A DNA stretch of 64,000 nt from the IMG/VR virus record IMGVR_UViG_3300037418_002133, positions 32,001-96,000 of that record; one strand, written 5' to 3'. The DNA is from a virus. Position numbers and translations under genes: made by a program. Of this stretch, positions 27,296 through 45,561 are shown piece after piece; within the stretch, counting starts at the first letter, position 1, and each line of letters begins with the position of its first letter. The notes below the pieces were generated by a model that worked only from the letters and a program-made list of their open reading frames with translations, did not search any database and was not told the origin of the DNA.

Positions 27296-27931
27296 GTGAT
27301 AGCAATCGCCTGTCTGTCGCAGAAAGGCGGGGTCGGTAAATCGACCCTCGCCCGGCTCATCGCCAAGACCTATGCCTCGGGGCAATGGCGGGTCAAAATC
27401 GGCGATTTTAACGTCAAACAGAAAACCTCGGTCGATTGGGCGGCAATCCGGCTCAGTCAGAACGTCGAGCCCGAGATCCAGGCCGAAGCCTTCAACGACG
27501 TCACCAAGGCCATGCGTGACGACTTCGACCTGATGGTGTTCGACGGCAAGCCCGATTCAGACACCCAGACCATCCGGCTTGCCCAGGAAAGCGTCCTTAC
27601 GGTCATTCCAACCGGGGTCTCCTCGGACGACCTGGTGCCACAGGTGCGGTTCGCTCAGGAGCTGAAGATCCGCGGCATCGACAGCCGCAAGATCATCTTC
27701 GTCCTCAACAAGACCACAGACTCGCTCGCAGCCATCATGGATGCGCGCAACTTCCTCAAGACGGCCGGCTTTACAGTGGCGAAAAGCTGGCTCCCGATGA
27801 AAACCGCCTACATCAACGCCCACAATTCCGGTCGAACGTTGTCGGAGACTGACTTTCCGACCCTCAACGATCGTGCCGAAGCTCTTGCACAGGAGATCAT
27901 CGACCATGTCACCAGCCTCGAACGGGCCTGA
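27296..27931 (+). CDS. parA: ParA partition ATPase (short type Ib/ParF-like)
   Basis: QKGGVGKST deviant Walker A; 211 aa without N-terminal HTH. Confidence 0.92.
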   Translation: MIAIACLSQKGGVGKSTLARLIAKTYASGQWRVKIGDFNVKQKTSVDWAAIRLSQNVEPEIQAEAFNDVTKAMRDDFDLMVFDGKPDSDTQTIRLAQESVLTVIPTGVSSDDLVPQVRFAQELKIRGIDSRKIIFVLNKTTDSLAAIMDARNFLKTAGFTVAKSWLPMKTAYINAHNSGRTLSETDFPTLNDRAEALAQEIIDHVTSLERA

Positions 27932-28205
27932 AACCAAGGGCGTCAAAGTCCCCTCGCCTCCCCAGCGTCGCGGCATCATCGCCCAAGTCCCAACACCCGT
28001 CGCGGCGCCGGACAACCTGTCCAAGCCCAACTCCGGACTACAGGATATGAATTTCAAGATGTCGCCTGAATTTCATCGCGCCTTCAAAATCACCGCCTCG
28101 ATCCGCGGCATGGCGATGAAGGATTTGCTTGAAGCCTCGTTCCGATGCTGGGTAGAACATTACGGCGACGATCAAGCCAAAGCTCTCCTTCCTCCGAAAG
28201 AATGA
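27906..28205 (+). CDS. ParG-like ribbon-helix-helix centromere-binding protein
   Basis: Disordered N-terminus + MNFKMSPEFHRAFK...GMAMKDLL RHH pattern directly after parA; start uncertain. Confidence 0.75.
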   Translation: MSPASNGPETKGVKVPSPPQRRGIIAQVPTPVAAPDNLSKPNSGLQDMNFKMSPEFHRAFKITASIRGMAMKDLLEASFRCWVEHYGDDQAKALLPPKE

Positions 28206-28671: not shown

Positions 28672-29084
28672 CCTGCGACAAGGTTAGGGCAATATTCCTA
28701 TTGGTGCGGGGATCCGGATGATGTATCCGGGAGTTGGCATGGGTCAATTCTTGTGACAAGGTTAGGACGGAAAAGCTGTCGAGGGGCCAGAAGGCAATGC
28801 CTTCGCTGCATCGCACAAAAACCTAAGACATCGCATCTGTTGCAATTATGCAACACACGACGCGTCCCGCGAAACGCGTGACATTTCCGCAACACAGCGT
28901 TTCTTGCGATTCTGTGTTTGTGCAGCGCACAATAAAATAAACACGATTTCGCATTGCAACATGCTATGCGCAAAATGCATAACACGATTTAGTTAAGTAG
29001 TGATAATTATGTCACACGTGCTGCTGCAACAAATCTGTAGCATGATCAAGTCACGAATTGTTACACTCTGTAACATCATGTGAT

Positions 29085-29113
29085 TTGTTCGCGTTGCTGT
29101 AACACGTTATAAC
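29085..29113 (+). promoter_or_regulatory. Putative sigma70 promoter of the GG/CC-free cassette
   Basis: TTGTTC-17 bp-TATAAC about 50 bp upstream of ATG 29161. Confidence 0.4.
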
Positions 29114-29160
29114 TTAGTCACGTTAGCAATGACGCTAACACTACAGAGTGAGAAACGACG

Positions 29161-29778
29161 ATGACGAAAGTTAATGACAAGATCGCGAACTACGTTGCAG
29201 AACTCAACAGCGCGCTTGACGCTCGCGCTTCGTATGAACACGACAAGAGCGCTGCGAACGACTCGATTCAGACGTGCATCGCAGCGCTTCGTAAGAGCGT
29301 CACACACGTCGATATTGCGAGCGTGCTACTCTCATGCGACGTCGATTCAAACTTCATCAATCGCAGCGAGCGTTCGAATAATCGTTATAACGTCTACGCT
29401 GCACAGAAAGTCGACAACGTCGCGCGCGCTGTCAAAAGCGTTGCAGAACTGAATCACTATTCGCTTGCGATCTTGCGCGTTGCGCTCGCTGTCGAAAAGA
29501 TCGACTCTAAGCTGTCGCACAAAGACGCTGTAGCAGCGTGCAGCGCGTCTGTGAAGCACAGCGACGCGAAGCGCGAATCAATCATCAAGTCGCTACGCTA
29601 CGCAAAGCACGTCGCTGCAAATACAGCGTCAACGCAATCGTCGTCGTCGATTAACGCGCTTCAAACGTGTCACATTCTGAGCGAAGCGCGCGATGCTGCG
29701 AACAACATCGTCTACAGCGTCAATCGCGAGAGCGAAGCGTTCAAGACGCTCGCGAAGAGATACGAACTCGCGATCTGA
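29161..29778 (+). CDS. Gly/Pro/Trp-free protein, paralogue of 32079-32888 (putative DNA-binding)
   Basis: Aligns by eye with the 32079 product (FINRS..RYNVYA; TASTQSSS..ALQT); gene has no GG or CC. Confidence 0.8.
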   Translation: MTKVNDKIANYVAELNSALDARASYEHDKSAANDSIQTCIAALRKSVTHVDIASVLLSCDVDSNFINRSERSNNRYNVYAAQKVDNVARAVKSVAELNHYSLAILRVALAVEKIDSKLSHKDAVAACSASVKHSDAKRESIIKSLRYAKHVAANTASTQSSSSINALQTCHILSEARDAANNIVYSVNRESEAFKTLAKRYELAI

Positions 29779-29859
29779 CAACGCAATGCAGAGTGACGCT
29801 TCACAGCGTCACTCTGTAACATCACTTAATCAAGTCACCGCAAACACAGAGCTAGAACA

Positions 29860-30045
29860 ATGCAGCATGAGAAACGACTAATGAAGCAACGCGAATCAGC
29901 GCGCGTCGAAAAGTACAAGCGCGCGTTTGACTGCGACTCTGTTGACGCTGATTATCTATTCGACGACGTCGCACGCGACTGTGACGCGACGTTAGCAGCG
30001 ATCGAACTGCGAGAATCGATCACGCGCTACGCGATAGCGCACTAG
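29860..30045 (+). CDS. Small Gly/Pro/Trp-free hypothetical protein
   Basis: 61 aa ORF within the island, followed by a hairpin. Confidence 0.5.
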   Translation: MQHEKRLMKQRESARVEKYKRAFDCDSVDADYLFDDVARDCDATLAAIELRESITRYAIAH

Positions 30046-30380
30046 ACGCGTGACATAGTCGAAAGTCTATAGACGAAAGTTTATTAGACTTTCGACTGTG
30101 ACATTTAAGCCTCACTGTTGCTCTGAAGCCACTGTGGTATGCCCGCCACAGTGGCATTTTTGCCACAGGCGAACCCCATGGGGAGGGTAAGGCAGACCTG
30201 AAATCCCAAGGATTTCAAGCGGTCTGCCGATCCCATGGATCCCACCGGTTCCTAATCCCATACCTAGTGACCGGTTCCCATGCCCATCCATGGCGATCGG
30301 TTCCGGACGCCAAAACCCATGGCAGGCTTCCTTGCCGGACAGGGCACCCATAGCAGGCGCCCTCTCCTTTTGGCTGCTGG

Positions 30381-30548
30381 CTACTCCTCGGCTGTGCCAG
30401 GCACCATCCACACCGACGAGGAAGCCCCGTAGACGTCAGTACGACGAGCGAACATCGACGACATGCGAGCGATTTCCATGAGCTTGTTTATGCATCCGAA
30501 GCGCATAAGCCCAAACGTATTCAACTTGGGCTGATAGAGGATGATCAT
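30381..30548 (-). CDS. Small hypothetical protein
   Basis: GAGGA RBS before ATG 30548. Confidence 0.45.
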   Translation of the reverse strand: MIILYQPKLNTFGLMRFGCINKLMEIARMSSMFARRTDVYGASSSVWMVPGTAEE

Positions 30549-30629
30549 GGTGTTTTCCTCAGATGAAGAAGGCGGCGATGATGAAGGCCCCAACGATCAT
30601 GATGGGGTAGCTGATGAACTCGTCGAGCA

Positions 30630-30866
30630 TCACTGGAACTCCACCGGTACGAAGCCGAGGCTGCGGCTGGCGTTCTCCAGGTGCGACCGGGCGATGTCGA
30701 GGGAATATATTCCGCTCTCGTCCTTGGAGATTTGCTTCACCGCAGCGTTGAGCCAGGTCAGGGCGTAGCGCAGGTGTTCCTCAGCGTCGGTATCGGCGAA
30801 GCGACCGATAGCGTTCAGGACGCTCATACGGGCGCGATTGACGAGTGCGAGGCGCTTGCTTCTCAT
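30630..30866 (-). CDS. Hypothetical early protein
   Basis: GGAG RBS and CC-N9-CC promoter upstream. Confidence 0.6.
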   Translation of the reverse strand: MRSKRLALVNRARMSVLNAIGRFADTDAEEHLRYALTWLNAAVKQISKDESGIYSLDIARSHLENASRSLGFVPVEFQ

Positions 30867-31123
30867 TTTCGATCTCCGTGTTTGCTCAACACAAAGATCG
30901 TCGCATATCGCCTTGTGGGATGCGGTCGGGCGTATAAGGCGAGTTTATACGGCCTGGCGTTTACGGACCGGCCTGGCGATGGAAGACGGCCTGGCCGAGG
31001 ATGACCGGACCGGCCTGAAGCCCATGGAGCGCCATGCCTGCCCATGGAGGACCGAGGGATCTCTAAGGGCGCGTAAAACCCTATAGATATATAAATATAT
31101 CTATAGGGTTGGGATGCGAACGG

Positions 31124-31390
31124 CTACGCGAGGCAAAGCTCGCTGGACTGACGGGCTGCTTCTTCGATGCACAGCGCGACGAGGTGCTGGGCGTTGAAGG
31201 CTTTCTCGTGGAGCATCGCTTCGTTGATCGCGGGATCGATCTTGCTGATGGTCATTTCGTTGGTGTCGTAGTTGTAGGACGACGTGAACAGCACGGTATC
31301 TTTGTAGATCGCGCTGAAGGCGCATTCGGGGTTCATCGGGTGCGCGTCGTTGGAAAGCTCGATCTTGATGGTCTTGAGGGTGCTTTGCAT
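31124..31390 (-). CDS. Hypothetical early protein lacking Gly and Trp
   Basis: Promoter motif upstream; GAGAG RBS. Confidence 0.65.
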   Translation of the reverse strand: MQSTLKTIKIELSNDAHPMNPECAFSAIYKDTVLFTSSYNYDTNEMTISKIDPAINEAMLHEKAFNAQHLVALCIEEAARQSSELCLA

Positions 31391-31453
31391 GTTAGCTCTC
31401 GTTTGTGTGAACGTGAGAACTATCTCACGTTCACTTTTGGGATGCGAACGGGC

Positions 31454-31744
31454 TCAGACGGTCATGTCGAAGGAGATCTTCATGGTCTCGTCGACGATCA
31501 GCTTGCGGAGGGTTTCACTGGAGTTGCAGCGGTAGTAGACGCTGTCTCCCGCAGCAGCTTGCGCGTCGTTGGGATCGAACTCGCTGTCATGGAGCTGCGT
31601 GACGCGCACAGCGAAGCATTTGGTGTCGTCTTTGGCGATCGCGCACGCTTCGATGACGGTCCTTTGGTTCATGACGGAGAAGAAGCGCTCGCCTAAGTCT
31701 TGCGACATGAGGGAATCGAAAGTGGTTTTGTCGATCTGGTGCAT
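31454..31744 (-). CDS. Hypothetical early protein
   Basis: Start MHQIDK at 31744, downstream of operator and TATACT. Confidence 0.65.
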   Translation of the reverse strand: MHQIDKTTFDSLMSQDLGERFFSVMNQRTVIEACAIAKDDTKCFAVRVTQLHDSEFDPNDAQAAAGDSVYYRCNSSETLRKLIVDETMKISFDMTV

Positions 31745-32042
31745 GTTTTGCTCTCGCTGTGAAAATAAGTCAGTTCTGACATACGACAGTATAGCTAGGA
31801 ATGCGAGCGGCGGCTCGTGGTGCGTCCGTTGGGGTATCGAGCTGGGTCTGTAGCTTAGGAGCGCTAAGGACGCACCATGGGGCTTCCCTAGCGATTTCCC
31901 ATGGGAAGCCATGGTTCGCCTCGGGACACCACGGCCGCGCCCTCTCCAAAAATCCGCCTTGGTTCGCCAATCGGTCGGTCCCATGGACCCCACCGGTTCC
32001 AGATACCAAGGATGCCCCATGGTTCACAATTCGCCACAACGA

Positions 32043-32062
32043 AGGGGAGCCGAAGCTCCCCT
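32043..32062 (-). terminator. Hairpin terminator
   Basis: AGGGGAGC-TTCG-GCTCCCCT just after stop at 32079. Confidence 0.7.
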
Positions 32063-32078
32063 CGCTGTCTCGTTCGCC

Positions 32079-32888
32079 TTACGCTGCCTTCGCGAGCACC
32101 GCTTCGAGCTTGGCGACCGCAGGGTGATCGGTCAGCTCGAACGTCGGGTTCTTGTGCGACCCCGAGCGCTTGACGATCCCGAGCGTTTCGAGCGCCTGCA
32201 TCGTCGAGGAGGCTTGGGTCGGCGCCGTCGACGCTCCGACAGTGTGGCGGATCAGGATCGCCTTCACCGCGCCTTCGACGCGGATCTTGTCGGAGGCAGC
32301 GGCTTTCGCCAACTCGCCGGTGAACGTGATCCCAGCTTTGCGACAGGCGAACAGCGAGCGCATGATGGCGAAATTGATCTTGTTGGTGATTTCGCCACCA
32401 CTGAGACCGACGATCGCATCGGCGAGCTTGCCGAACGCGTAGACGTTGTAGCGCTTGCCATCGTGTACGCTGCGGTTGACGAACGCCTCGGTGACACCGC
32501 ACGCCAACAGCACCGCACCCGCTCGCGTCGAGGACAACTGGGCGCGCGCCTTCTTGAGCGTCTTCTGGATGTTGTCGTTGCCGTTCGCGAGTTCGAAGTC
32601 CGCACGCTCGTCGACGGCATTCGCCATCTTGACCGTCGCTTCGATTTTCGCCTCATCGCTGATGTTCGCCATCATGTCGTCGAAGCTCTGGATTTCGCCA
32701 TCGGCCTGGACTTCGAGGACCGGGTCGATATTCGCCTCATCCTCGATCAGCGCCTCATCGATCGCCTCAAGCTCGACGATTGCCTCGGCCGACGCCTCAT
32801 CGAGCATGTCGAGCGCCATGAACTGCACGGCGTTGCTGGTCTCGGTTTCGAGCGCGGCGATCTGAGTCTTCGTGGTCTTCTTTGCCAT
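32079..32888 (-). CDS. Protein with acidic N-terminus and putative winged-helix C-terminus
   Basis: D/E-rich first ~80 aa; STAPTQASSTMQALETLGIV helix followed by beta-wing-like segment. Confidence 0.75.
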   Translation of the reverse strand: MAKKTTKTQIAALETETSNAVQFMALDMLDEASAEAIVELEAIDEALIEDEANIDPVLEVQADGEIQSFDDMMANISDEAKIEATVKMANAVDERADFELANGNDNIQKTLKKARAQLSSTRAGAVLLACGVTEAFVNRSVHDGKRYNVYAFGKLADAIVGLSGGEITNKINFAIMRSLFACRKAGITFTGELAKAAASDKIRVEGAVKAILIRHTVGASTAPTQASSTMQALETLGIVKRSGSHKNPTFELTDHPAVAKLEAVLAKAA

Positions 32889-33944
32889 TGTCGTTCTCTC
32901 GTTTCGTTGTCGTCGCGTCATTGCGACAATCGAACTATCTCAGAACGAGGCAAGGGAAGCGGTCGGCAAAACAGTAGGCGAATAGGCAAGGTGTAGGCGA
33001 AAATGGGTGAGGCGAACCGCGGGCCGGACCATGGATTTTCGCCACCTTTCCGCTAAGAGAATCTATCTACTAGATATATATCTTATATAGTGAAGAGACG
33101 GCTTTTTTCGCAGACACATTCCGGACGTCTAAAAGGTTCGCCATGGAGACTCAAGGGGCTCCGGTAGCGACTGATTTTACAGGGAATTCAGACCCCGGCC
33201 GTGGAATGCCATGGGAAGTTATGGCGAACCTCGGCGACGCCATGGGTGTGTAGGCGAAAAGCCCTTGGTTTATAGGCGAAAATCGTGGGGAGAGCATGAG
33301 GCGAATTGGAATGCCACGGCGCGCTCTCTAATCTACCTTCTTCACCTCCTCTATTCGTACCCTCTCCCTCTCTTCAGACCCCTCACCTCTTCACCACTGC
33401 TCTCTAGGCTCTCTCGCTCTGTAGGTTCTCTCTACGGTTCTTGAGAGTTTTAGGTTGAGGTCTTGGTGCTATTCGCTTTGGTGCTGGCTCTGACCGTTCC
33501 CTTTGTTTGATATATCGGTTGAGGTCTCTCTACCGGTTCCTGAAAAGTTGATGGTTGTTGTTCTGCTGGTTTTGGGGATTGTTGACCCTCGTGTTCTGCT
33601 CTCTGAAAATTTTGCTTTGGGGTCTCTCTTGGGGAGTGCTGATTTTGGGTTCTGAAATCGCTTGTTTTGCTGGGAAAGTTGAGTGTCAACCTTTTGCATT
33701 TTCGAGGTGGGGTTGACGAAACGTTGACAAAAAGTAAACCAGAACTGACTTATACGGTAATCTGGTAGTGATATCGGGATTTGGGAGGTTTACTTCTGGT
33801 TCACATGTAAACCATTTTGAGAGCTGGAATTGGTATTGGTTTGAGAAAATCAGGGATTTTTGACGGGTTTTCAGCCGTTTGGTTTAGATCTTGGTTTACA
33901 TGGTTGACAAACCATGGGGCCGGAATGGTCTGAAAGAGGGGCGT

Positions 33945-36900
33945 TTAAGCCCTCTCCTCTACCTTAATATCAGCCCTTGGCCTTGGCGTCGTCATAGCCG
34001 CGGTTGTAGTGAGCCTTCTGCTCGTCGGTCCAGTGGCCCCAGGGGCTCCTTGCCCAGCCGTAGGCGTGGTGTGTCTGGCCGAGGCGATAGCAGTCCTGGT
34101 CGGTCGGGTTGTCCTGGATCCGACGGTCGTTCTCGGCGTAGTTGATTTCAGCCATAGTGAACTCCTCACCCCCTTTCTAGCAGACATCGGCTCGATCGCG
34201 AAGCCGTCCGAGATTATCTGGGTCGTGGTCTCGACGATTTGGATGCCCGCCTCGTTGAGATCGCCATCATAAGCTGCGCCACCTCCACCAGGATCAAGAA
34301 GAGACGTTAGCGCATCCTCGACGTGTTCGACGACATAGGTGCGATCTTCGGTGCAGTCGCGCATGTGTTCGGTTGCGACCTTGAGGAGCTTCTTCTCGTC
34401 GAAGACCTCGATCTCCATTTCCAGGCGGTAGGTCTTTTTGGTCATGTGTCGTTCTCCATCAGTACCTTGGTGACCAGCGCTGTTAAGGCCAGGATCCCGA
34501 GGATGGCGCCGGCGTGCGTTATGACGATCATCTAGCCCTCACAGCGACGGCGCTTTCCGATGTCAGGTCTGGATCGAAATTCCACATCGAATTGACGTGG
34601 GTGAGAAACTCACGGCAAGCAGCTTCATCGGGCAAACGATAGTGGCTTGAGATACCGTTGAGGTGGCGCATATCTTTCGGCTCCATAACGGTATCGTCAG
34701 GAAGAAGGGTGATTTCGCCGAGGTGATATTTCTGTCCGTCTCCTCGTTCGCAGGCGAGGATTTGGACAAAATAGCGTCGGTTCACGAGCGCCTGATAGCG
34801 CTCGCAACAATCACAGTCGAGGTCGGCCGGGTTTGCGGTGAAATATCGGGAGATATTCATGTCAGCTTACTCCGATCGCGATTTCTTCGATGTTGTCCAT
34901 CCGGATCCAGGTGTCAGGTGTATCGTCGTCCTCGATCCTCAACAGTAGCCATTCCTCGCTGTGTGCGACGACCGTGGCGCCGTTGAAGGTTCGGCCGGAT
35001 TTGAGGATGAGGACATCGAGCCAGTAAGCCGTGCCCGCTTCGTCGAGCGTGGTCATCCTGGCGTTTGGTGATGCTTGGGTCATCTTTCCCTTACTCCGCG
35101 ATCATATCGGGCTCGAAATCGCCGATATAGGCGAACGAGATTGTGTGGGAATGAATATCGAGATGACAGTCGATGTAGACCTCGCCCTCGACGTCCCAGC
35201 CGCGCACCTGAAGCACGTCGAGACTGAACGCCGTGGGAAGTCGATCGTGGTTCGGCATCGATTCGATCAGCGCCAGAAGACCGTCGACTCTCGCCTTGTC
35301 CGTGATCTCCTCGTGATCGTAGTCGTAGTCTTCCGGGACGAATTGGTCGAAAAGGTTCTCGTAGTCGCCAAGAGTTCGCATTGTCAGATCACCCCTGCAT
35401 ATATTCGGAGACGGCGTCTTCCGCGCTCTCGACGCATTCGCGGATCGTGAGGAAGTGCTCTCCGAACTCCTTCATCATGTTCTTTCGAACGTCGCGCGCC
35501 ACGCGCAGAATGAGCTTTTGCTTGTCCGATTTAACCATTGCGACTCTCGCTCTCGTTGTGTTAGAGAGAATATCGCATATATTTCAATGGTTTACTACTG
35601 GCGATGCTATGTCCCAGTAGCTTTCCGCGCAAGGCCAGCTATATTCAGAACAGCAGGAGCGACGTTGATGGCGACGATGGTGACCGAGGTTTACGATGCG
35701 CTGAAATCCGCTGGCGTGGCGGAGGACAAGGCGCGTTCGGCTGCTGTCGCCATGGCGAACTATGAGCCGCGGTTTGCCGGCCTCGCCTCTGACCTGAACC
35801 TGGTGAAATGGATGGTCGGCTTCAATCTGGCGCTGACGGTCGCGGTGCTGTTCAAGCTGTTTCACTGACCTTGGTGCGGAGTTCTTCCAGCGCCTCGACA
35901 CCAATCTTGTTCAGTTTGCCATTCGCCGCGAGTTCGACCAGACGCAGTTCCTGAATCGTCAGATCATTGCCATCGTGAGACTTCTGAAGGATCTCGATGG
36001 CAAAATTCTGCTGAACAATGCGCTCCTCGATCCATTTGCTATCCGTAGGTAGGGAAAGACGCTCCCTTTCCTGTTGAGTAAAGCGGGTGGCGCTGGGAAA
36101 GCTCGTCCAGCCCAGTTCGTTCGACCAGAAACCATCGTCATCATCGGTCGCTTGAATCACCCAGGTCATAGTCCTCTCCCGATCGCCATCAGTTCGTCGA
36201 TGATGTTGTCCGTTTGTTGCCAGCCGATGGATTCGCGCCAATCAGGCCAGACGGTCGCGAACCATGTCCGCATCTGTCGTTGGTTTAAATCGCCTGGGTT
36301 GCCATGCTTGGCAACGAGGTTCTCGGCGATTTCGCGGCTCTCGGTCATGTCGCACCGCCAGTTTTGACGGTGACTGACAGAGCCGCCTCCAACTCCTTGC
36401 ACCGCTCCGCAAGCTGGCGCGGCGTCAGGCCGGTTTCATGGGCGACGGTGAAGGCTTCCGCGATCAGATTGGCATTCGCGACGGCTTCGCGCTGACTTAC
36501 AGCGGCATCCCATTCGTAAGGATAAAACCCACCTGGACGAACAATGGTCTTATCTTCATCGTCGACGGAATTGACGGATAACGGCCAACCGCTCCATTGA
36601 CCGCCATCATCACAGATAAAGACGCTGGCAGGCCCCTGCGTGAACATTCTGCGGCTTTCGGTCATTGCGATTGAGCCTTCTGATAGGCGTTCCAGGCGTC
36701 AACCGCGCGGCCGGTATCGCCTGCTTCATGCATCCAGTGACGACGTTCCTGATCGCTTAGATTGTTCCACCATTTCATCCCAGCCTCGTCGTTTGCGCGA
36801 TCTCGATCTGGCGTTTTACCAGACTTTAGAAACTCGTTGAGGTCGCGGCCGACGGACGTTTCACCGGGACACGGCGGTATGTCGCGCGGCGCCACTTCAT

Positions 36901-37042
36901 AGCTTGGTTCGCCATCGTAGGTGCATGAATAGAACTTCCAATCATGCCGACCCCACGAGCCGTCGTCCTGATAGCAATACAGGCTTCGACCGTCGCGATA
37001 GTAGACGCGACAGTTGCCGTTGTCTTCCGAGTCAAATTTCAC
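33945..37042 (-). other. Cluster of small co-oriented hypothetical early genes (e.g. 33970-34155, 34528-34860, 34862-35083, 35091-35381, 35852-36169, 36166-36348, 36345-36665, 36662-37042)
   Basis: Tightly packed, stop/start-coupled minus-strand ORFs with no recognisable motifs. Confidence 0.6.
35668..35868 (+). CDS. DUF1640/CCDC90-like small membrane-anchored protein
   Basis: YDALKSAGV.EDKA...LVKWMVG + TM helix; AGGAG RBS. Confidence 0.65.
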   Translation: MATMVTEVYDALKSAGVAEDKARSAAVAMANYEPRFAGLASDLNLVKWMVGFNLALTVAVLFKLFH

Positions 37043-37380
37043 GCCACGATCCTCCCCTTCTCCATCGCTTCCTTGGCGTAGGCGCTGATCGGCTTGTCGC
37101 CTTCGAACGATCGATCACGCTCGACTGGCAGACCCAGTTTACCGCGAATCTGAATAACCTCATTCATATCCACATAGCCCAGCTCGGGCTCGCCGTGACC
37201 AAGGTCGCAGAGACCGAACGCCATACCCGTCTCGTCGATATCGGTCAGGAGCCAGGTACATTGGGCGTCGGGCGTAAACAGCTTCACGACGGGGACGAAA
37301 TCGTGTTCGCCCTTTTCCATCGTTCCTCGATTGGCGAGGAGCTGGCGATAGTCCCTTTCGGTCAGAATCCGGAATCTCAT
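37039..37380 (-). CDS. DUF2958 family protein
   Basis: PVVKLFTPDAQCTWLLT..AFGLCDLG.GEPELGYV..LPVERD. Confidence 0.85.
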   Translation of the reverse strand: MRFRILTERDYRQLLANRGTMEKGEHDFVPVVKLFTPDAQCTWLLTDIDETGMAFGLCDLGHGEPELGYVDMNEVIQIRGKLGLPVERDRSFEGDKPISAYAKEAMEKGRIVA

Positions 37381-38211
37381 GCGAACCTCATCGTTTCGCG
37401 AATTTATGCGTCACTCTCGCACAACGCGCAACGGAATGCGGCTGGCAATCAGGTGGTTTCGTCGATCTCCACCTCTTCGAGCTTGGTTTCGTCCCCGCAG
37501 GTGTTGCAATAGGCGTGGTCATAGGTGTCTCGAAGCACCCAGCGTTGATCTTCCACGTCCCACTCCGCCCAGGCGTCACGAACCACATCCTCAGAGCGAC
37601 AGTCGCGACAGACGATGCGAATTTTCTTCGGTTTGTCGGTCATTGAATGTCCTTCTTGGGATACTTGGCGATAGAGTAGACGTCGACCTCGCGGAATTTC
37701 TCGTAGACCGCGGGCTCGTCCTTCAATTCCTGCATAAGATCACCCATGATCTCCGCGAGTTGCTGCGCGCCGCGGACGTCAGAGGTCGCGATGGCGATGT
37801 TGACCGGCCCCGCATGGGCTCGCAGGATCGGTTCGGCGTCATTGCCGATCTGCCGTGCGGTCCCGCCGAGGTCGATAACCGATTGGTCTTTGCGGAAAAT
37901 ACCGAGCCTCATCATTCCCAAATCTCCGATGATTGGATCTCGAAGCGCTCGTCGTCGGCACATTCGAAATAACGGTCGATCGCCGCGTCCTTATCTGTCG
38001 GGATCGGCTCATTGGCGTTTACGCGTCGGTTCCACCATTCCTTGATGTAGGCGAACACGGCGTTCACAGCGGCCGACCGGGATCGAAAGACCCGCGTGTC
38101 GTTGCCGTCCTGATGATCGATCCGCATGACCCAGACGCTCATTGTCGTTCTCCGTCTCGTGCGTTGTCACAAAGAACAGTCGCACGAGACGCTTAGGTTG
38201 TCGGTTGGCAG

Positions 38212-38640
38212 TTACTTGGCAGTCAGCGAAACCTTGCTTTTGCCAAAGTTGATGATGATTTGCTTGGCGCCGCGGTCGATGTAGTTCTTGATCGACTCGG
38301 CCCAGGGCAGCGTCTCGCCGAAATCGTCGCCACCGACAGCGTCGTGGGCGCGATCGTACCAATCCTTGTCGGTCTCGGGGTTGTACCCCTTCGCGTAGAC
38401 GACGTAGCGGGAGAAGTGCTCGTCTTTCGCCTTGGATGGATCCGCCGGGTCGCCAGGCGTTCCGTTTGACATCAGATACAGACCGCGATCCTTGACCAGA
38501 ATCACGGACGGACCTTTGGGCGCTTCGGTAATCGGATTGAAATCCTTGTCGTAATCAACGAGGACTTCGCTCTGTTTGTTGGCGATGGAGTGCTCGACGA
38601 CCCGCTTCAGCGCGGCAGCGTCGAAAACCAGCTTTGCCAT
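38212..38640 (-). CDS. DUF3085 family protein
   Basis: LVKDRGLYLMSN, YAKGYNP, GGDDFGE. Confidence 0.8.
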   Translation of the reverse strand: MAKLVFDAAALKRVVEHSIANKQSEVLVDYDKDFNPITEAPKGPSVILVKDRGLYLMSNGTPGDPADPSKAKDEHFSRYVVYAKGYNPETDKDWYDRAHDAVGGDDFGETLPWAESIKNYIDRGAKQIIINFGKSKVSLTAK

Positions 38641-40067
38641 GATCTGTTGTCTCCTGTTTGCGATGATTAATCGTCGCACAGTCGCGTCAGGATTGCGGTT
38701 GGGAGAGCGCTCTGGGCTTCAGGTAGACACGCACGCGATAGGCCGTGTTTTTTGCCTTCATCATGCCGGTCAACAGGCACTTCGATATAAACTTGCCGTG
38801 GACTGTGCATCCGTAGCCATTGTGATAACTATGGATATAACCGTCGGGCTCCCCTCGCCTGCCCATCGCCTCGTCGACCGTGAGCCAGACGTGACCTTCG
38901 AAGCACGACGGAATCGGATCGCCATTCGGGAAGAACGGCTTCTCATAGACCGTGGCGCGTTCGATGCCGGCCCAGACGTCCGATAGATCGTTCCAGTAGA
39001 GCCGCCCTTCCGGCGCCCGCTGGTTTGCCATGACGTAGCTCATGCCTCGTCTCCAGCCTGTATATTTTCCTCTACAAGATCCACGACCGGTTCCTCATCC
39101 AAGAACCCGTGAATTGTCATCGAAGGCGAAAGACTGACTTGTGGAAGATCTGGATCATCGCACTTCAAATCCGAGATCAGATCGCATCCGCCGGCATTGT
39201 CGACCTCGATATCGTCAAACTGGATTGTCTTGGCTAGTTCGATCGCTTCCGCTTTTGAGTTCGCCTTGATGTAGGCGGTCGCAACAACCTCGATGTCGAT
39301 GGAGTAAAGGTTCATGTTGAATGCTCCTGCGAAATTTGAATAAGAGTTGCACGACGCGCACTGGATAGCTTCCGGCGGCGTCAGGGTGTTGCGAGCGTTT
39401 CTAAGCGTCACAGAGCGTCGGGTTTGAGAGCGTGTCTCTTCACACAGCGAGACGACGCAAACGCATAGAAACGCAAACCTGAGCGTCTACGCAGCGCTCC
39501 CGTCGCTCTTTCGCTCGTGAAGTAGTTCGAGAAACTGCGGAAGGTCGGATTTCTTGCCGTCGGGCAGCGGTTTGAACCCCACGGAAATGCTGACCAGGGT
39601 GTCGATCGGTGTCATCAGCCAGGTGTTGTCGATGGTGTTGCGCCCGTAGATGTCCGTCGGTGTAACCCGCACCGAGTCGATGCGGAAAACGCTGCCGTTC
39701 TCCAGGTTCAGATCGATGAAGGAAATTGCGTCTTGGTTCTCAGGATTGAGAAGGTGGAGCGCGCTAATCAGATTGCGAAACCCCTGCCTCATGGCGTCGT
39801 CACCCGCTCGACGTGCTTGGGATCCGAGGCGATCAAGGCGGCGCCGACGCACCGCATCATACTGCGTCGGTCGATCGGCCGCATATCGCTCCAAGCCGGC
39901 ACAGGATTGACCCGGTCTGGCGTCCGCCGGGTGAACTCACGGCGTAATTCGCGGACAAAGGCTTCGGTTGAGACGGCGAGCGTCGTTGCATCAGGAGTCG
40001 GCATGTTACCTCATAAGTCAGAACTGACTTAATTATCGTGCGAAAACAAACGGTTGTCGAATGGTGT

Positions 40068-40451
40068 TCAGTTAACTTCCAGATGTTCCATCACCCGTTT
40101 GACAGTCACGGCGAACCAGACGCCACGACCGGATGGTGTCTCAACCTGATGTTCGTTGAGGTACTTGGCGATGTCGCGCAGACCGGTTCGCCCTTGGGCC
40201 TTGGCCTCGGCGATGACCGGCGCAATCTCGTTGCGAAACTTGACGGCTTTCAATTGCCGGACACGAACGGCGTCCTCACGCATCTTGTCCATGTCCGGAT
40301 TGCCGTATTCCGCTGCAAGCGCGACCTTGGCCTGCTCTTTCAAATTCGACAAGGCCGCGGCAATCCCCTCGCCGGCCGGATCCAGGTCGATCACGGCCTG
40401 GGCCAGTTTCTTGAGGAGCTGTACGCGGCTCTCGTTGGACTTCTTGGGCAT
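40068..40451 (-). CDS. Recombinase-type DNA-binding domain protein (no catalytic domain)
   Basis: LRDIAKYLNE..V.TPSGRG.W...TVKRV. Confidence 0.65.
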   Translation of the reverse strand: MPKKSNESRVQLLKKLAQAVIDLDPAGEGIAAALSNLKEQAKVALAAEYGNPDMDKMREDAVRVRQLKAVKFRNEIAPVIAEAKAQGRTGLRDIAKYLNEHQVETPSGRGVWFAVTVKRVMEHLEVN

Positions 40452-40802
40452 CTTAGTGAGTGGTTCCCACAATCTCGGGGTCTTTGGCCATCTGGAATAG
40501 AATATCCATGATCGCCGGCACCTTCAACGCCACAGAGAGCGCAACCAGTGTTTCACCAATCTTGAGTTGTTCGGGGGTGAACTGAGAGGGATCCGAGACG
40601 TTGTAGGTATTGAAAATCTGGACCGATCCGTCGGCCTTGATCACCAGGCCAGCATCGCCATCGGCGATCGGAGAGACAGGAGGTACGAGTTCTTCGATGG
40701 AAAATGGCACGTCAGATCCTTTGAACGTTAACTGCTGCGATACGCACAGTATAGCGTCAGAGCGTTGGCGAGCGCACGGTTATGCCAAGGTCTGCGAATC
40801 AA

Positions 40803-40830
40803 AAGCCCCGCGACGGGGTGTGCGGGGCTT
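40803..40830. terminator. Hairpin terminator
   Basis: AAGCCCCGC...GCGGGGCTT inverted repeat. Confidence 0.6.
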
Positions 40831-41180
40831 CCGTGAATAGAGCTTCTTGCTCGGAATAACGCGACCGCGTCGGTGCGGATCAGGACACCAACGGGTCGGA
40901 ATGCGCTGGTTCAGTTTGTCGAAATCGACCTTTTTGAGACGCTTTGCCATGACAGATCACCTTTACAAAATTATTCCCAACTTTTTTCGGAATTATGCAT
41001 TCCGGATACTGGTTTTTCTTGTGCGGACTCGACCCACATTATATCGCTTTTTAGCGTTTTCGCTAAATGGCGACGACGTAGGTAAAAAATCCGCGCTAAT
41101 AAGACAAAAATCCTGTTGACCAGCTAAAGAACATACAGGAAACATGGTCAGTACCCTCGCCTGTCATCAAGGAGATTATT

Positions 41181-41438
41181 ATGAGTTACCATAGTGTCGA
41201 GGAGTTCGCAGAAATGCGGTCTTCTCTTGCTCAACAACTAGTGTCCACCGCTGCTCGGTTTGCCGACGATCGTGGTTTGACGAAACTGAACGAAGCGGCG
41301 TTGCGACAACTCTCGACTCCTGTGAACGACGTGGCTTTGGAACTCCTTGTCTTTGGCGCCGATGCCTGGCCCGAATATGTTCGGCTCGACAACGGTAGCG
41401 ATTTCGCGAAAATGCTAAATGGAGAAAACGGCTCTTAA
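41181..41438 (+). CDS. Hypothetical protein
   Basis: AAGGAG RBS; TTGACC upstream. Confidence 0.6.
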   Translation: MSYHSVEEFAEMRSSLAQQLVSTAARFADDRGLTKLNEAALRQLSTPVNDVALELLVFGADAWPEYVRLDNGSDFAKMLNGENGS

Positions 41439-41697
41439 CGAAAACTGCCTTTCGCGAAACCGCTAAATCGTCCTTTCGTTATTGCGCTAAAGGACGATTT
41501 AGCGAATTGTTACCTCGATCGAATCCCAGGTCCGCTCCTCGCCCGCTTCGTCGAGAAGTTTGGTAAGCGCCTTCTGAGTTGCCTCCGTTGGCGTCGCGCC
41601 GCTGGCCTCGACCGTCCGGATCCGCTGATGGGCCGCGTTATACGCAATCGCCATTGCCGTAATCAGTGCCATTTTCCATCGTTCTTTCGTTAAATCG

Positions 41698-41970
41698 TTA
41701 TTTCGCCCAAGCGCTCTTTAGCGAATTGACGCCACGGAGCGCCTCCTTTGCATCGTAATTCGGGTGATTTTGCCACCATTTCAGTTTTCGCTCGCAGATG
41801 GTAAGTTCTTTTGCCGCCTGCATTTTCTCCGCTGTCGTGCCATTCTGATGCATAAAGGTCAGATATAGCAGGTTTTCGTAGTGTCTGAGGTAGCCCTTCA
41901 CAGCATTCAGCTTGTGAAAGTCGACGGCGCCGGTGAACGGCTCGCGCTGCTCGGAATAAATCAGGCTCAT
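41698..41970 (-). CDS. Hypothetical protein
   Basis: CC-N9-CC promoter upstream. Confidence 0.6.
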   Translation of the reverse strand: MSLIYSEQREPFTGAVDFHKLNAVKGYLRHYENLLYLTFMHQNGTTAEKMQAAKELTICERKLKWWQNHPNYDAKEALRGVNSLKSAWAK

Positions 41971-42542
41971 CGCGTTCTCGCTAAATCGCTAAATCGTGAA
42001 TTAACGATAGCGCGTCGCACGTCGGGATGCGGCTGGCGATTGCACCCGTCGAACGGCAATCGCTAAAGAGCGAAATCGCTAAATAGCTCGTTCGCTAAAA
42101 CGCGATTAGAGCGTCACTGAGCGTCGGATCGATTGAGACGTACAATGCAGCGTTAAGACGACGACAGCGCATCAGCGCGCGTTCCTGCTCGATCCCGGTG
42201 ATGCTGTAGATCGCGAAATAGCGTTTTCGCTAAATCGCGATCTAACAAAGCGGTGAATAATAGTTCATTTCACGTGGAACGAATTAACGGAACTTTAAAC
42301 AGTTCCACCCTTCGCCTGATAGGCGGGGCAACCCTCGCAGTCCGAGGGGTATTTCAACAAATGGCCGGCGAGGGCGTTGCGCGAGAGCCACCTGGGCACG
42401 TTGAGCAACTGGTCCGGCGCCTCATCCATTGCCCAGCCACACAGCATCGGACCCTCGATCTGGCGCTGATCACCGGTGAGGGCGTCCACCTCGACAGCAT
42501 TCTCGGCGCGCTGGGCGAAACGACAGGGGATCATGACGGATC

Positions 42543-42902
42543 CTAGGTCTGGGGGAGGGGGCGCCAATGCGTCGCCTTGAAGAAAAAGAGCCCATCTCCA
42601 TTGTCGCGGTAAACACCGCGTTCTTCGCAGGCTGTGAAATTTGGCTTTGTCGAAATAGGGCGCCAGATGTTCGGCGGAACCGCGACACGCAGCGGCTCAA
42701 AATTGTCGGCAAAATAGTCCGCAGCGACTAGCCATTTGTCGGCGTGGTTCTTCGGGTTGCGAGCGATCATGTCACCGGTCTTGGGTGATCCATCAGCCGC
42801 ATCGACGGCGGAAACACTCACGCCGCTCATGTCGAAGTCTGGCGTCCAGGGCTGCATTTCCGCGATTTGCGTTCTGCGGTACTGGGTGAAAGTGTCGCTC
42901 AT
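42543..42902 (-). CDS. Hypothetical phage protein
   Basis: GGAGG RBS; GDMIARNPKNH.D.WLV motif. Confidence 0.55.
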   Translation of the reverse strand: MSDTFTQYRRTQIAEMQPWTPDFDMSGVSVSAVDAADGSPKTGDMIARNPKNHADKWLVAADYFADNFEPLRVAVPPNIWRPISTKPNFTACEERGVYRDNGDGLFFFKATHWRPLPQT

Positions 42903-43095
42903 GGGCGTAGCCCTCCCAACTTGTGCTTTGTTCGTTGAAGACGGCGTCGCTGTGCGCGGGTCAGTTCCGGCGGTGCAAAAACGGACGCTTCTTTGATCGC
43001 CAGTTCTTCGCGATTCCGCGCCTGCGCTTTGTGAAACGCCTCCAGTTTTGCCCGATAGTAGTCGTCGGGCGACATGGGATGGTTGAAATCCACCA

Positions 43096-43788
43096 TCACA
43101 CCGCCTCCACGCGCTCAAATCGACCATCTTCGAACTCAGCGACAGGACGGACCCAGTAGCGATCGTCATCGCCGCGGTAGATCACAACCTCATCCTCGTC
43201 CTGGAGGACGGTCTCGGCCGCGATCTGCAACGTGCCGCGCCCGATCTCGGTGTAGGTTGTGCCGCGCTTCTTGTGGCGCCAACGGGGAAGGGGATCTGCC
43301 GAGGGATAAGCCTGTGTCACCACAGGCTCACTCTCTCCCGAAGGTAGAGAGCTGAGACAACCCTCGGCAGAACGACTACCTGGTAAACCAGGTTCGTCAT
43401 CGTAGGCCGCGGTTTCGATTGCGCTACACCATGCGTCACGATGCGTTCGGCAATCTTCCAACGCCTCCCGCAGCACATCGTCACCGGCCTTGGCGGGCTC
43501 GGGGATGAGGGCGGATGTCATGTTGTCAATTTGCGTGAGAAGCCCGATCAAGTCGCCAGTTAACGGCTTCCATTCTGGAGCGGTGGCCTTGTAGTGCTTT
43601 TCCCAAAGCGCAACAGCGAGACGCTCGGCGTAAGCCGCCCCCGCGCTTGACGCTGCGGCGAGACGTAGGGCAGCGACTACTTCCGTCGACTGACGAATGC
43701 CAAGCTGTTGCGGCCTATCGCCGTGCATCGTGAAAAGGCCATCCGATGCTTCGATTTGATCCGCCAGCGTCGTGTATTTGTCGGTCAT
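43096..43788 (-). CDS. Hypothetical protein with C-terminal DUF1653-like domain
   Basis: WRHKKRG..Y...VVIYR...WVRP..EF. Confidence 0.55.
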   Translation of the reverse strand: MTDKYTTLADQIEASDGLFTMHGDRPQQLGIRQSTEVVAALRLAAASSAGAAYAERLAVALWEKHYKATAPEWKPLTGDLIGLLTQIDNMTSALIPEPAKAGDDVLREALEDCRTHRDAWCSAIETAAYDDEPGLPGSRSAEGCLSSLPSGESEPVVTQAYPSADPLPRWRHKKRGTTYTEIGRGTLQIAAETVLQDEDEVVIYRGDDDRYWVRPVAEFEDGRFERVEAV

Positions 43789-44142
43789 GCTTGTCTCCAA
43801 GAAAGGCGTGGGGGCTGTGTGACCTTGAACCCTGTCGAGACCCCATAGGAGCGGGAAGCCGAGCAGGTCACTTTTCGTTGTTCGCCGAGCCCCGGCAGCG
43901 TCAAAACTAGGCTTCCCTTCGCGAAACGGTTGAAACACTTGGCAGGACTGCGACAGATCACGGGTGAGCAAACTTGGAGGAAAACACACTCGCAATTGAT
44001 ATGGCGGGGCAATCGCCACGTCGCAGTCCAGCTAAATGTTTCGAGAGACATGCGGGAGTGCGACCCGCTTCAACGCCAATAACTCAGCTCCACGTATTCG
44101 CACTCCCTGCAATCGATAGCCGCGGCTACCAATTGGTCTCGA

Positions 44143-44838
44143 TCAGAGCGCCTTCAGGCGCTCCGCAATCTTCGAATTCGGGTTGATCGTCAGCGTCTGA
44201 CCCGAACGTGATGCGATGCCGACGACGTCGAACAGCACCATGATCTGACCCGCTTGCGAGCGCGCCGTGCCTTCGTTGTAGCCAGCACCCGAACGGCTCG
44301 AACTGGCGCGCAGCGCAGCGACGAGATCGGCGTTGGTCACCTCACCCTTCGCGACGAGAGCCTCGAAGCACGCCATCACGTAGACGCTGGGCTTCTTGCC
44401 GACCGACAGAGAGCGGAACAGATTGTCGAACTTCTCCGCGATTTTCTTCTGGGTCGGCATCCGACCGATAACCTTCGCCTGATTTTCGATCAGATCGTCG
44501 GTGTCGCCGGCGAACGTCGTGTCCAGGATGAAGAAATCGGGATCGATGCTCGAAAGCTCCTTCGGAGCGCGGGGCGTCGCCGCCTTCTTGGCCTTCGCAG
44601 GCTTGGCAGCTTCGACAGCCTTCGGCTCGGACGCCTCGACATCGACGGTCGAAACTTCCTGATCGGCGTAGGCTTCGTCCATCGCTTCCGTGACCTCGAT
44701 CGCCGAAAGATCGTCGGCGCTCAAGGACTCGATGACGAGATCCTCGTTTTCTTCGCCGATATCGTCCATGTCCAGATCGGCGAGCATTTCGTCAACGCTG
44801 CTCGCGGCGTTGACCTCTTCGTGCAGAATCTTTTCCAT
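44143..44838 (-). CDS. Acidic N-terminus, putative winged-helix protein; distant paralogue of 32079 and 29161
   Basis: D/E-rich N-terminus; SVYV..., GTARSQAGQIMVLFDVVGI. Confidence 0.65.
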   Translation of the reverse strand: MEKILHEEVNAASSVDEMLADLDMDDIGEENEDLVIESLSADDLSAIEVTEAMDEAYADQEVSTVDVEASEPKAVEAAKPAKAKKAATPRAPKELSSIDPDFFILDTTFAGDTDDLIENQAKVIGRMPTQKKIAEKFDNLFRSLSVGKKPSVYVMACFEALVAKGEVTNADLVAALRASSSRSGAGYNEGTARSQAGQIMVLFDVVGIASRSGQTLTINPNSKIAERLKAL

Positions 44839-45561
44839 TTCACTCTCCTCGTTGCTGTCTTGTGTCGCGTCGTTCGCTACAGTCGAGAATATAGCGTGCT
44901 CACTTTTGGAATGCGGTTGGGACATTGCTACTTCTCAGTGGCAGTTGTCGTCGCCGGCGCCAGGCGTCCGAACAGCCCAAGACCGAGCAACAGAAAGCGC
45001 GCCACGGTCCAGCCGAGCAGTTGCCCGATGATCGAGAGAAGACCCATCACGACAGCGAACAGCGGCGTTCGCAGACATTGCCAAAGCGAAACGGGCGCCC
45101 ACCAGATGCTCTCGGCGATGCCCATGCGAACCGATTGAAGCCAGTCGCTGTTCTTGCCGAATTTCACGCGAGGAGTGCCCTTGCGCTTCGCAGCCTCGGC
45201 TTCCGCCTTCTTGCGACCCGTCACCGCGTCGAGCGCCTCAACCAGATTATCGATGGTCTTTTCCTGGTTCCGGAGCTGATTGCTGGCAATATCGATGATG
45301 GTTTTCAGTTTGCCGATGACATCGAGCGAGTGATCCATGATCGACTTGATCGGGACGTGGAGATCCATCAGATCATCCTTGTCGCAGCCCAATTCAGCCG
45401 CGATATAGTCCAGATCCTTGCTGTCCCGGTAGAACAGAGCCCAGGCGCGATCATTGTCGAGAGGGGCGGTCAATGCAGCTTCTCCTGCTTCAGGACGAGA
45501 TAAACGAGCGCGGAAAAGCTGCCTGTGAACAGGCAGCAGTAGACCGCGATTTCGAGCGGGC

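Follow-up and report, generated by a model that had tools for sequence, protein, structure and literature searches.

Why should a virus keep two versions of one gene about 2 kb apart, one of them written without the dinucleotides GG and CC, and what do the two products do? We addressed this question in positions 32,001 to 96,000 of the IMG/VR record IMGVR_UViG_3300037418_002133 (the window, 64,000 nucleotides of one strand, whose numbering is used throughout unless stated otherwise), where a first-pass annotation had described three paralogous genes at 29161, 32079 and 44143 and proposed a regulatory cascade started by the GG/CC-free member. The reading at which we arrive, and to which we give a probability of about 0.5, is that the three genes would encode sequence-specific winged-helix DNA-binding proteins. 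The product of the ordinary gene at 32079 (the normal copy) would bind the CCATGG palindromes that stand in arrays on both sides of its own gene and throughout the spacers of a ~4-kb segment beside a GG/CC-free island, and through these arrays would regulate both itself and that segment. Less securely, the product of the gene within the island (the island copy) would be the version made when GG/CC-free DNA alone is usable, immediately after entry, and would act on the same segment before the acidic-tailed normal copy takes over; and the 44143 protein would be a separate regulator that shares the winged-helix domain alone. The argument depends on the following features.

28887..30110, no strand: GG/CC-free island, with one CC (29838), zero GG and ~52% G+C
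29161..29778, + strand: island paralogue, 205 residues, without Gly, Pro or Trp and without an acidic tail; a GG-free ribosome-binding site, AGAGTGAGAAACGAC, lies ahead of its ATG
29860..30045, + strand: second island open reading frame (ORF), 61 residues, likewise free of Gly, Pro and Trp, without detectable relatives
32079..32888, - strand: normal paralogue, 269 residues from Met12 (ORF open to 32921), with a predicted acidic disordered N-terminus of ~70 residues, helical subdomain and C-terminal winged helix
44143..44838, - strand: third protein, 231 residues, phrog_5235, with an acidic N-terminus and a predicted C-terminal winged helix

The island is the only gap of its kind in the 116,086-bp genome from which the window is taken, where GG and CC together number ~250 per 2 kb elsewhere, and the description of the 29161 gene as GG/CC-free holds. 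When the 205-residue protein was back-translated with the codon usage of the genome, 2000 draws contained a mean of ~57 GG/CC and a minimum of 36; because none is observed in the actual gene for the same protein, the rule acts on nucleic acid, including the choice of codons and the junctions between them. With no GG:CC step permitted on either strand, Gly, Pro and Trp are consequently gone from the island protein, whose alignment nevertheless still spans the whole domain. The σ70-like promoter earlier ascribed to the island copy could not be established, because matches of this quality occur at chance level: the candidate (ATAACA-17-GATAAT, 28979-29007) is one 9/12 match in a region that holds three such, compared with 2.2 expected by chance. 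An exact 15-nt word, CACTCTGTAACATCA, precedes both island ORFs (29064 and 29810). Directly after the stop codon of the island paralogue lies a perfect 12-bp stem, CAGAGTGACGCT/AGCGTCACTCTG, with a loop of 4 and no T-run (29789-29816), which overlaps the copy of this word ahead of the second ORF. Limited literature searches found no description of GG/CC-free phage islands or of Gly/Pro/Trp-free proteins.

Alignment-based searches recovered loci from ~20 related contigs; in most of these a homologous island of 750-1530 bp and the normal copy lie 1-6 kb apart, and the genomes have a G+C content of 56-67%. A single-protein query for related loci in two collections found none. GG/CC-free islands are also present in the cultured phages RHph_Y2_11, RHEph10 and B1VFA. 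Each of the relatives' islands encodes a Gly/Pro/Trp-free protein of 190-236 residues that matches the island protein of the window, at BLASTP E values of 1e-61 to 2e-6 for nine of them and 0.06 for the farthest. Full-length Gly/Pro/Trp-free orthologues of the island paralogue in at least 11 relatives rule out a pseudogene or chance ORF. Two lineages show what seems to be a relaxed constraint: L010 carries an island-type gene (1967-2641 of that locus) in DNA with 67 GG/CC per 600 nt, whose product has regained one Pro and two Gly, and several Gly and Pro are present in P0337, likewise a protein of island type. These lineages would be useful for finding the reader of GG/CC by gene loss.

That the island and normal copies are paralogues, as first proposed, is confirmed. 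BLASTP aligns the 29161 and 32079 products at 31% identity over 159 residues (E = 4e-20), the motifs originally quoted in favour of their kinship are present in the alignment, and a profile from an alignment of normal and island copies together (A3) finds both in the genome at E = 1e-83 and 3e-65. Homologue alignment places the true start of the 32079 ORF likely at Met12 (32888). Island copies span the whole conserved domain in A3, including the helical subdomain; across this full-domain alignment Q160 is invariant and R30, Y85, K89, T156 and A167 are nearly so, while conserved Gly and Pro residues of the normal copies are swapped in the island copies (APTQ to ASTQ, TLGIV to TCHIL or TFNVL, and the wing turn GS..NP to RDAANN). 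A maximum-likelihood tree built from 11 island and 17 normal copies has a single branch that splits the two kinds (Shimodaira-Hasegawa-like approximate likelihood ratio support of 99), with longer branches among the island copies. Since one well-supported branch separates them, the data fit a single duplication that would be older than the clade, with the recoding kept ever since; RHEph10-like phage-plasmids retain both copies.

The acidic N-termini reported for the 32079 and 44143 proteins, and their absence from the island copy, are likewise borne out: Asp and Glu outnumber Lys and Arg by 17 to 3 in the first 68 residues of the 32079 product and by 27 to 8 in the first 95 of the 44143 product, and both tails are predicted to be disordered. 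The place of the 44143 protein in the family is a different matter, and here the proposal of a three-member paralogue family stands for the two clear paralogues only. Its gene most likely starts at the ATG at 44838, giving 231 residues within a 260-residue ORF, and residues 36-259 of that ORF match the PHROG family phrog_5235 (function unknown) at E = 3.6e-29; the island and 32079 products have no significant PHROG match. BLASTP relates the 44143 product to the 32079 product at E = 0.004 and to the island product at 0.068, and HMMER profiles find two A3 members and one member of the 44143 family (alignment A2) in the genome, with no link between 44143 and the other two. Comparing profiles with hhalign, A2 matches the normal family alone (A1) at 67.5% probability (E = 5e-5) and A3, to which the island copies have been added, at 90.4% (E = 1.4e-6) over 100 columns running from the NVYA..K helix to the C-terminus. 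The 44143 protein is thus best described, from these alignments, as a remote relative that shares the winged-helix domain in its C-terminal ~100 residues and carries an analogous acidic tail. Homologues of all three proteins come from relatives' contigs of 116,696 bp and 119,013 bp, and the relatives probably keep the whole three-gene set.

The suggestion that these proteins are of winged helix-turn-helix (HTH) type agrees with AlphaFold2 models of the 32079 product (computed with 35 homologues) and the 44143 product, which show a consistent HTH-plus-wing topology. The former has a mean predicted local distance difference test score (pLDDT) of 84.6 overall and >90 for residues 80-280, with helices at 202-209, 218-222 and 233-246 and strands at 250-254 and 259-263; the latter has a pLDDT of 85.7, with helices at 152-164, 169-178 and 189-205 and strands at 209-212 and 215-218. 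Structural alignment by VIA-align, for which the tool background is Z 7-8, matched residues 175-280 of the 32079 model to AF1382 (2qvo; Z 9.4, root-mean-square deviation 2.9, 83 residues), to the Scc1 C-terminal winged-helix domain (8.1), Rio2 (8.0) and the ORC/Cdc6 winged helix (7.7), and to MarR/ArsR types at ~7; residues 150-231 of the 44143 model matched E2F-DP (1cf7_B, 8.5), AntR (8.2), Fur (8.1) and histone H5 (7.6). Several PDB chains are matched by both models: 6uvu_B (7.7 and 8.2), 9ire_B, 2va8_B, 6qpq_D and 6ez1_A (7.6 and 7.0). Because the Z values lie near background, the fold call rests on the HTH-plus-wing topology and the conserved third helix; on these models, both proteins end in a winged-helix domain.

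Sequence-profile searches place the family outside every named one. For the island and 32079 products, Pfam gave no match at E ≤ 1 bar one spurious and NCBIfam gave none; no named winged HTH family (MarR, ArsR, PadR, HxlR, Fur) matched significantly; and a search of PDB sequences returned NmtR at E = 2.5 and spurious cytochrome b562 fusions. BFVD yielded two uncharacterised phage proteins only, and ESM Atlas unnamed clusters and generic winged-helix rows. An exhaustive A3 profile search gave 560 clusters at 50% identity, of which the best 150 were listed. We take this winged-helix family to be confined to RHEph10-like phage-plasmids of Alphaproteobacteria. Like the MarR, ArsR-SmtB and PadR regulators and the orphan AF1382, its members combine a predicted three-helix bundle, a C-terminal β-hairpin wing and a conserved third helix, and the palindromic candidate sites described below suggest dimers, as in MarR, ArsR and PadR. 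Unlike those regulators, they have no Pfam, NCBIfam or PDB sequence match, possess a further helical subdomain as well as a long, acidic and disordered N-terminal tail, and have as candidate sites arrays of 2-7 short palindromes rather than a single operator.

The evidence for a target of the normal copy comes from these arrays, which lie as follows (none has a strand).

30176..30322: CCATGG array 1, with 4 sites; the terminator hairpins of the island lie on one side and the final gene of the adjacent operon on the other
31022..31047: CCATGG array 2, 2 sites, upstream of the 30866-30630 gene
31875..32022: CCATGG array 3, 5 sites, between the stop codon of the normal paralogue and a GCTATA promoter at 31795
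33029..33245: CCATGG array 4, with 4 sites flanked by TTCGCC and with TAGGCGAAAA repeats; located upstream of the normal paralogue's promoter-like element, at 60-280 bp

Sixteen of the 27 CCATGG sites in the genome fall within 30176-33912, the 3.7 kb beside the island, where ~0.9 would be expected; all 16 are intergenic, in groups of 4, 2, 5, 4 and 1, and a TTCGCC flank is frequent. The island itself holds none of these sites because it is GG/CC-free by construction. In 19 relatives CCATGG occurs at 5.3 per kb within 700 bp upstream and 4.2 per kb within 700 bp downstream of the normal copy, against 0.18 per kb in flanks more than 3-4.5 kb away, with one site only inside a gene. The predicted recognition helix of the normal copy, TAPTQASSTMQAL, is almost invariant across the family, and the exceptions can be set beside the palindromes of the same loci.

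Most relatives: helix TAPTQASSTMQAL; CCATGG arrays
B1VFA: helix TASTQKSSTMTAL; CCTAGG at the same places, with 9 of the 10 sites in 22 kb located there, and CCATGG once
L020: helix ending in TMNALMMTG; palindromes of GGTATACC type, three within ~420 bp upstream (one imperfect) and one downstream, and no CCATGG
L019: helix similar to that of L020; no CCATGG
RHEph10-type: helix TAGTQASSTLNAM; CCATGG kept

Because the arrays change in two lineages whose recognition helix differs, we read the normal copy as the putative array binder, and this co-variation is the best evidence here for its target. What appears to be new in this analysis is the bracketing of the normal copy by CCATGG-type arrays across relatives, together with their co-variation with the recognition helix. 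We give roughly even odds to the proposition that the normal copy is a site-specific array binder that regulates itself and the adjacent early segment. The further step, that the island copy is a first-made version that primes the ~4-kb segment through the arrays and not through CC-rich promoter words, is tentative, and we would sooner doubt it than accept it. A rule by which a change from Gln to Asn in the helix removes CCATGG was considered and fails, as RHEph10-type proteins have Asn and keep CCATGG.

Several points weigh against the reading of the normal copy as array binder and the island copy as its forerunner. The co-variation rests on two or three lineages; there is no simple residue-to-base rule, because the RHEph10-type helix differs yet CCATGG is kept; and the arrays could be bound by another co-evolving protein. 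On the structural side, winged-helix Z-scores of 7-9.4 are near the tool background, Foldseek against the PDB gave nothing below E = 0.1 and only weak winged-helix-type matches, and the helical subdomain (residues 80-175 of the 32079 product) is without an assigned fold. The island copy, moreover, may have a different target from the normal copy because its helix differs: TQSSSSINAL compares with TQASSTMQAL, so that a T-Q-x-S-S-x-x-x-A-L core is kept and most other positions differ. Finally, relatives differ in whether the island gene runs in the same direction as the normal copy or converges on it (L002, L008, L010, L011, L013, L016 and L017 have one orientation; the window, L001, L005, L007, L012, L014, L015, L020, L022 and L047 have the opposite one), and the cassette has therefore been inverted during evolution.

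The cascade of the first-pass annotation places the targets elsewhere: the island copy, as pioneer activator, would bind CC-rich "CC-N9-CC" elements and switch on both normal copies, which would then drive later promoters. The elements in question are the following.

32936..32967, - strand: promoter-like element of the normal paralogue, GCCGACCGCTTCCC-N12-GAGATA, of a class (tGCCGAnCGCTTCCG-N10-12-GCTATA) found at many genes
44890..44922, - strand: promoter-like element of the third gene, CC..CGCATTCC-AAAAGTGAGCAC-GCTATA (spacer N12)

In favour of this proposal, a CC-rich word in the -35 region followed by a host-like -10 (GCTATA or GAGATA) does precede both the 32079 and 44143 genes, a layout that possibly needs an activator; we take GCTATA to resemble the alphaproteobacterial housekeeping -10. 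The island is also unable to contain CC-rich words, and the existence of a GG-poor tier of genes between island and normal copy (see below) suggests graded dependence. The common CC-N9-CC element, however, dissolves on inspection into a loose pattern, frequent by chance at 57% G+C, and two different words: the 44143 gene belongs with the two GG-poor genes to a second word class, CGCAT(T/C)CC-AAAAGTGA-N5-GCTATA/GAGATA, with similar CGCATCCC-AAAAGTGA words at 31446 and 31118. The exact forms of both upstream words are absent from 23 related loci. Because they are unconserved among relatives while the normal copy hardly varies in its recognition helix, the CC-rich words are poor candidates for its target, and we consider the cascade unlikely. 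T4 MotA, a phage activator with a separate N-terminal domain, acts at promoters that have a host-like -10 and a phage word replacing the -35, and the cascade as first proposed resembles this mode of action. No sequence or fold match to MotA turned up, and no search aimed at MotA was made. The locus differs from that system in that its CC-rich words are not conserved in relatives and its better candidate targets are found not at -30 but upstream of the promoter by 60-280 bp.

Two further palindromes deserve mention. One of 16 bp, AAGTCAG(AA/TT)CTGACTT, has 28 copies in the 116 kb, and as a rule a copy follows a -10-like GCTATA hexamer at 5-25 nt (in the window, for example, at 31769, with a - strand promoter, 40017, 55745, 60636 and 62344); it is itself GG/CC-free and has the appearance of an operator for a global repressor. 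In relatives L001 and L007 it is followed by TAACAT or TAACAA hexamers. A perfect 30-nt AT-rich palindrome, CCCTATAGATATATTTATATATCTATAGGG, at 31081-31110, right behind the CGCATCCC word after the 31124 gene, could be a terminator or an operator.

The operator palindrome bears on a second alternative, in which the tail-less island copy, made first, would occupy the same sites as the normal copy or form mixed dimers with it, delaying or reversing its action much as anti-repressors or Cro-like proteins do. In favour of this, the domain of the island copy is complete, with the helical subdomain through which the proteins could pair, and the acidic tail is absent; and because the palindrome AAGTCAGnnCTGACTT lies in the island promoter region of L001, L007 and L012, the island copy itself appears to be under the global regulator there. 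With recognition helices that differ at no fewer than four positions, and an operator that is degenerate at the island promoter of this window, we judge such antagonism quite improbable.

A third alternative is architectural: the CCWWGG arrays would mark a special ~4-kb segment (a terminal-repeat boundary or packaging site, the part that enters first, or a second centromere or origin), which the winged-helix proteins would organise, shield or pass on. It is favoured by the presence of arrays in every spacer of the 3.7-kb segment, by fold matches that include TubR (6aht_B, E = 0.21, among the weak Foldseek matches), ORC/Cdc6 and kleisin winged helices, and by a ParA gene next door. The 1-kb non-coding region upstream of the normal paralogue (32925-33944) can be added: it contains the TAGGCGAAAA repeats, an AT-rich patch at ~33055-33090, a long purine-rich tract on the - strand (~33330-33700) and GGTTTACA/GTTGACAAA words, and might serve as an origin or packaging site or encode an RNA. 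Inverted TGTAAA(C/G)(C/G)TTT pairs stand at the same relative place in L019 and B1VFA. The genomes of the relatives B1VFA and V1VFA-S end at fixed positions, in direct terminal repeats of 3.6-3.9 kb (3,605 bp in B1VFA), but the position of these repeats relative to the island is not given in that source (PMC12509600). Metagenome contigs provided no terminal-repeat signal, that is, no ends, variants or usable depth signal. RepC and ParA are, moreover, already present, RHEph10 is without CCATGG near parA, and the fold matches are generic; overall, an architectural role seems doubtful. The comparison with winged-helix centromere-binding proteins of TubR type leads to a similar balance, in that short-repeat arrays lie beside the gene of a winged-helix protein on a phage-plasmid, whereas here they occupy several spacers and a ParA system with a possible ribbon-helix-helix partner is at hand. 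No TubZ-like partner was noticed near the normal gene, and no search aimed at TubZ was made.

The plasmid functions in question, and the nature of the genome as a whole, are as follows. Immediately left of the island is the partition locus:

27296..28205, + strand: ParA-type ATPase with a possible ribbon-helix-helix partner (plasmid partition)

The ATPase passes the Pfam cut-off for ParA/CbiA (E = 2e-6), and the next ORF matches RHH_10 below cut-off (E = 0.0056, 17.4 bits). A RepC-family initiator gene (PF03428, E = 2.8e-41) lies at genome positions 3875-4378, outside the window (L050), in a 395-residue open frame, and together RepC and ParA support a plasmid lifestyle. Because RepC is encoded elsewhere, the winged-helix family is not needed as Rep, and a Rep-initiator role is disfavoured; no Rep profile matched, and the repeats here are short palindromes and not iterons. 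The circularly assembled genome (~57% G+C) also carries phage genes for a tape measure, portal, large terminase, RIIA/RIIB and ribonucleotide reductase. Relatives of the genes studied here come from cultured Rhizobium siphophages (RHEph10, RHph_Y2_11, RHph_X66, B1VFA and V1VFA-S), from plasmids of ~115-120 kb of Methylobacterium, Shinella, Sinorhizobium, Rhizobium and Pararhizobium, and from a Methylocystis metagenome-assembled genome and Faunimonas. Because plasmid functions, phage genes and these relatives come together, we assign the genome, on sequence grounds, to the RHEph10-like phage-plasmids of Alphaproteobacteria. The same DNA is present in rhizosphere and soil metagenomes; a DNA search of the region against phage records gave no match.

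Between the island and the normal copy the avoidance of GG continues on one strand only:

31082..31825, - strand: two small genes whose coding strand is almost GG-free and keeps CC, with 0-2 CC versus 10-17 GG per 200 nt on the + strand

The strand-asymmetric purge recurs at 32801-33000 and 33601-33800, ribosome-binding sites are of GAGAG type, and comparable GG-poor 300-nt windows exist in at least eight relatives. Taken with the two-strand purge of the island, we infer that this asymmetry is what a reader of one strand would produce, through a nick or modification at template-strand CC. A more speculative scheme can be built on this, in which the winged-helix pair and the CCWWGG arrays would form a self-starting switch, so that a two-letter DNA word would set the order in which phage genes are expressed. 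On entry, the genome would be unreadable or attacked wherever GG:CC occurs (through nicking of a specific strand, base modification or the binding of a protein), and expression would be limited to the GG/CC-free cassette; its Gly/Pro/Trp-free winged-helix protein would then dock on the neighbouring, GG/CC-containing arrays and open the second tier, with its CC-free template strand, and finally the ordinary paralogue. We think it unlikely that this scheme holds as a whole; if true, it would be an undescribed way of ordering phage expression, with a regulator pair written in two "alphabets".

The first-step-transfer (pre-early) DNA of T5 and the leading end of T7 are small blocks of first-needed genes without the motifs that a host or phage factor attacks in the rest of the genome. 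The locus resembles them in having a recoded cassette without the avoided motif, and the relatives' long direct terminal repeats are like those of T5 (PMC12509600). It differs in what is avoided, a dinucleotide step, and in the price of this avoidance, three amino acids. To our knowledge, the pre-early genes of T5 and T7 have no normal paralogue, which here lies 2 kb away.

The interest of the pair lies in one fold kept for a long time in two versions, of 20 and 17 amino acids, through a rule at the level of DNA and not of protein. It shows the strength of the GG/CC-reading pressure, with the normal copy as a matched control gene, and the co-varying CCATGG, CCTAGG and GGTATACC arrays point to a specific candidate protein-DNA pair that can be put to the test, in rhizobial and methylotroph phage-plasmids that are widespread yet unstudied and of which RHEph10 and B1VFA are in culture. 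To the right of the normal paralogue, where small genes run leftward, DUF2958 and DUF3085 proteins are encoded at 37039-37380 and 38212-38679 (- strand); both families are common in plasmid leading regions, beside anti-restriction genes.

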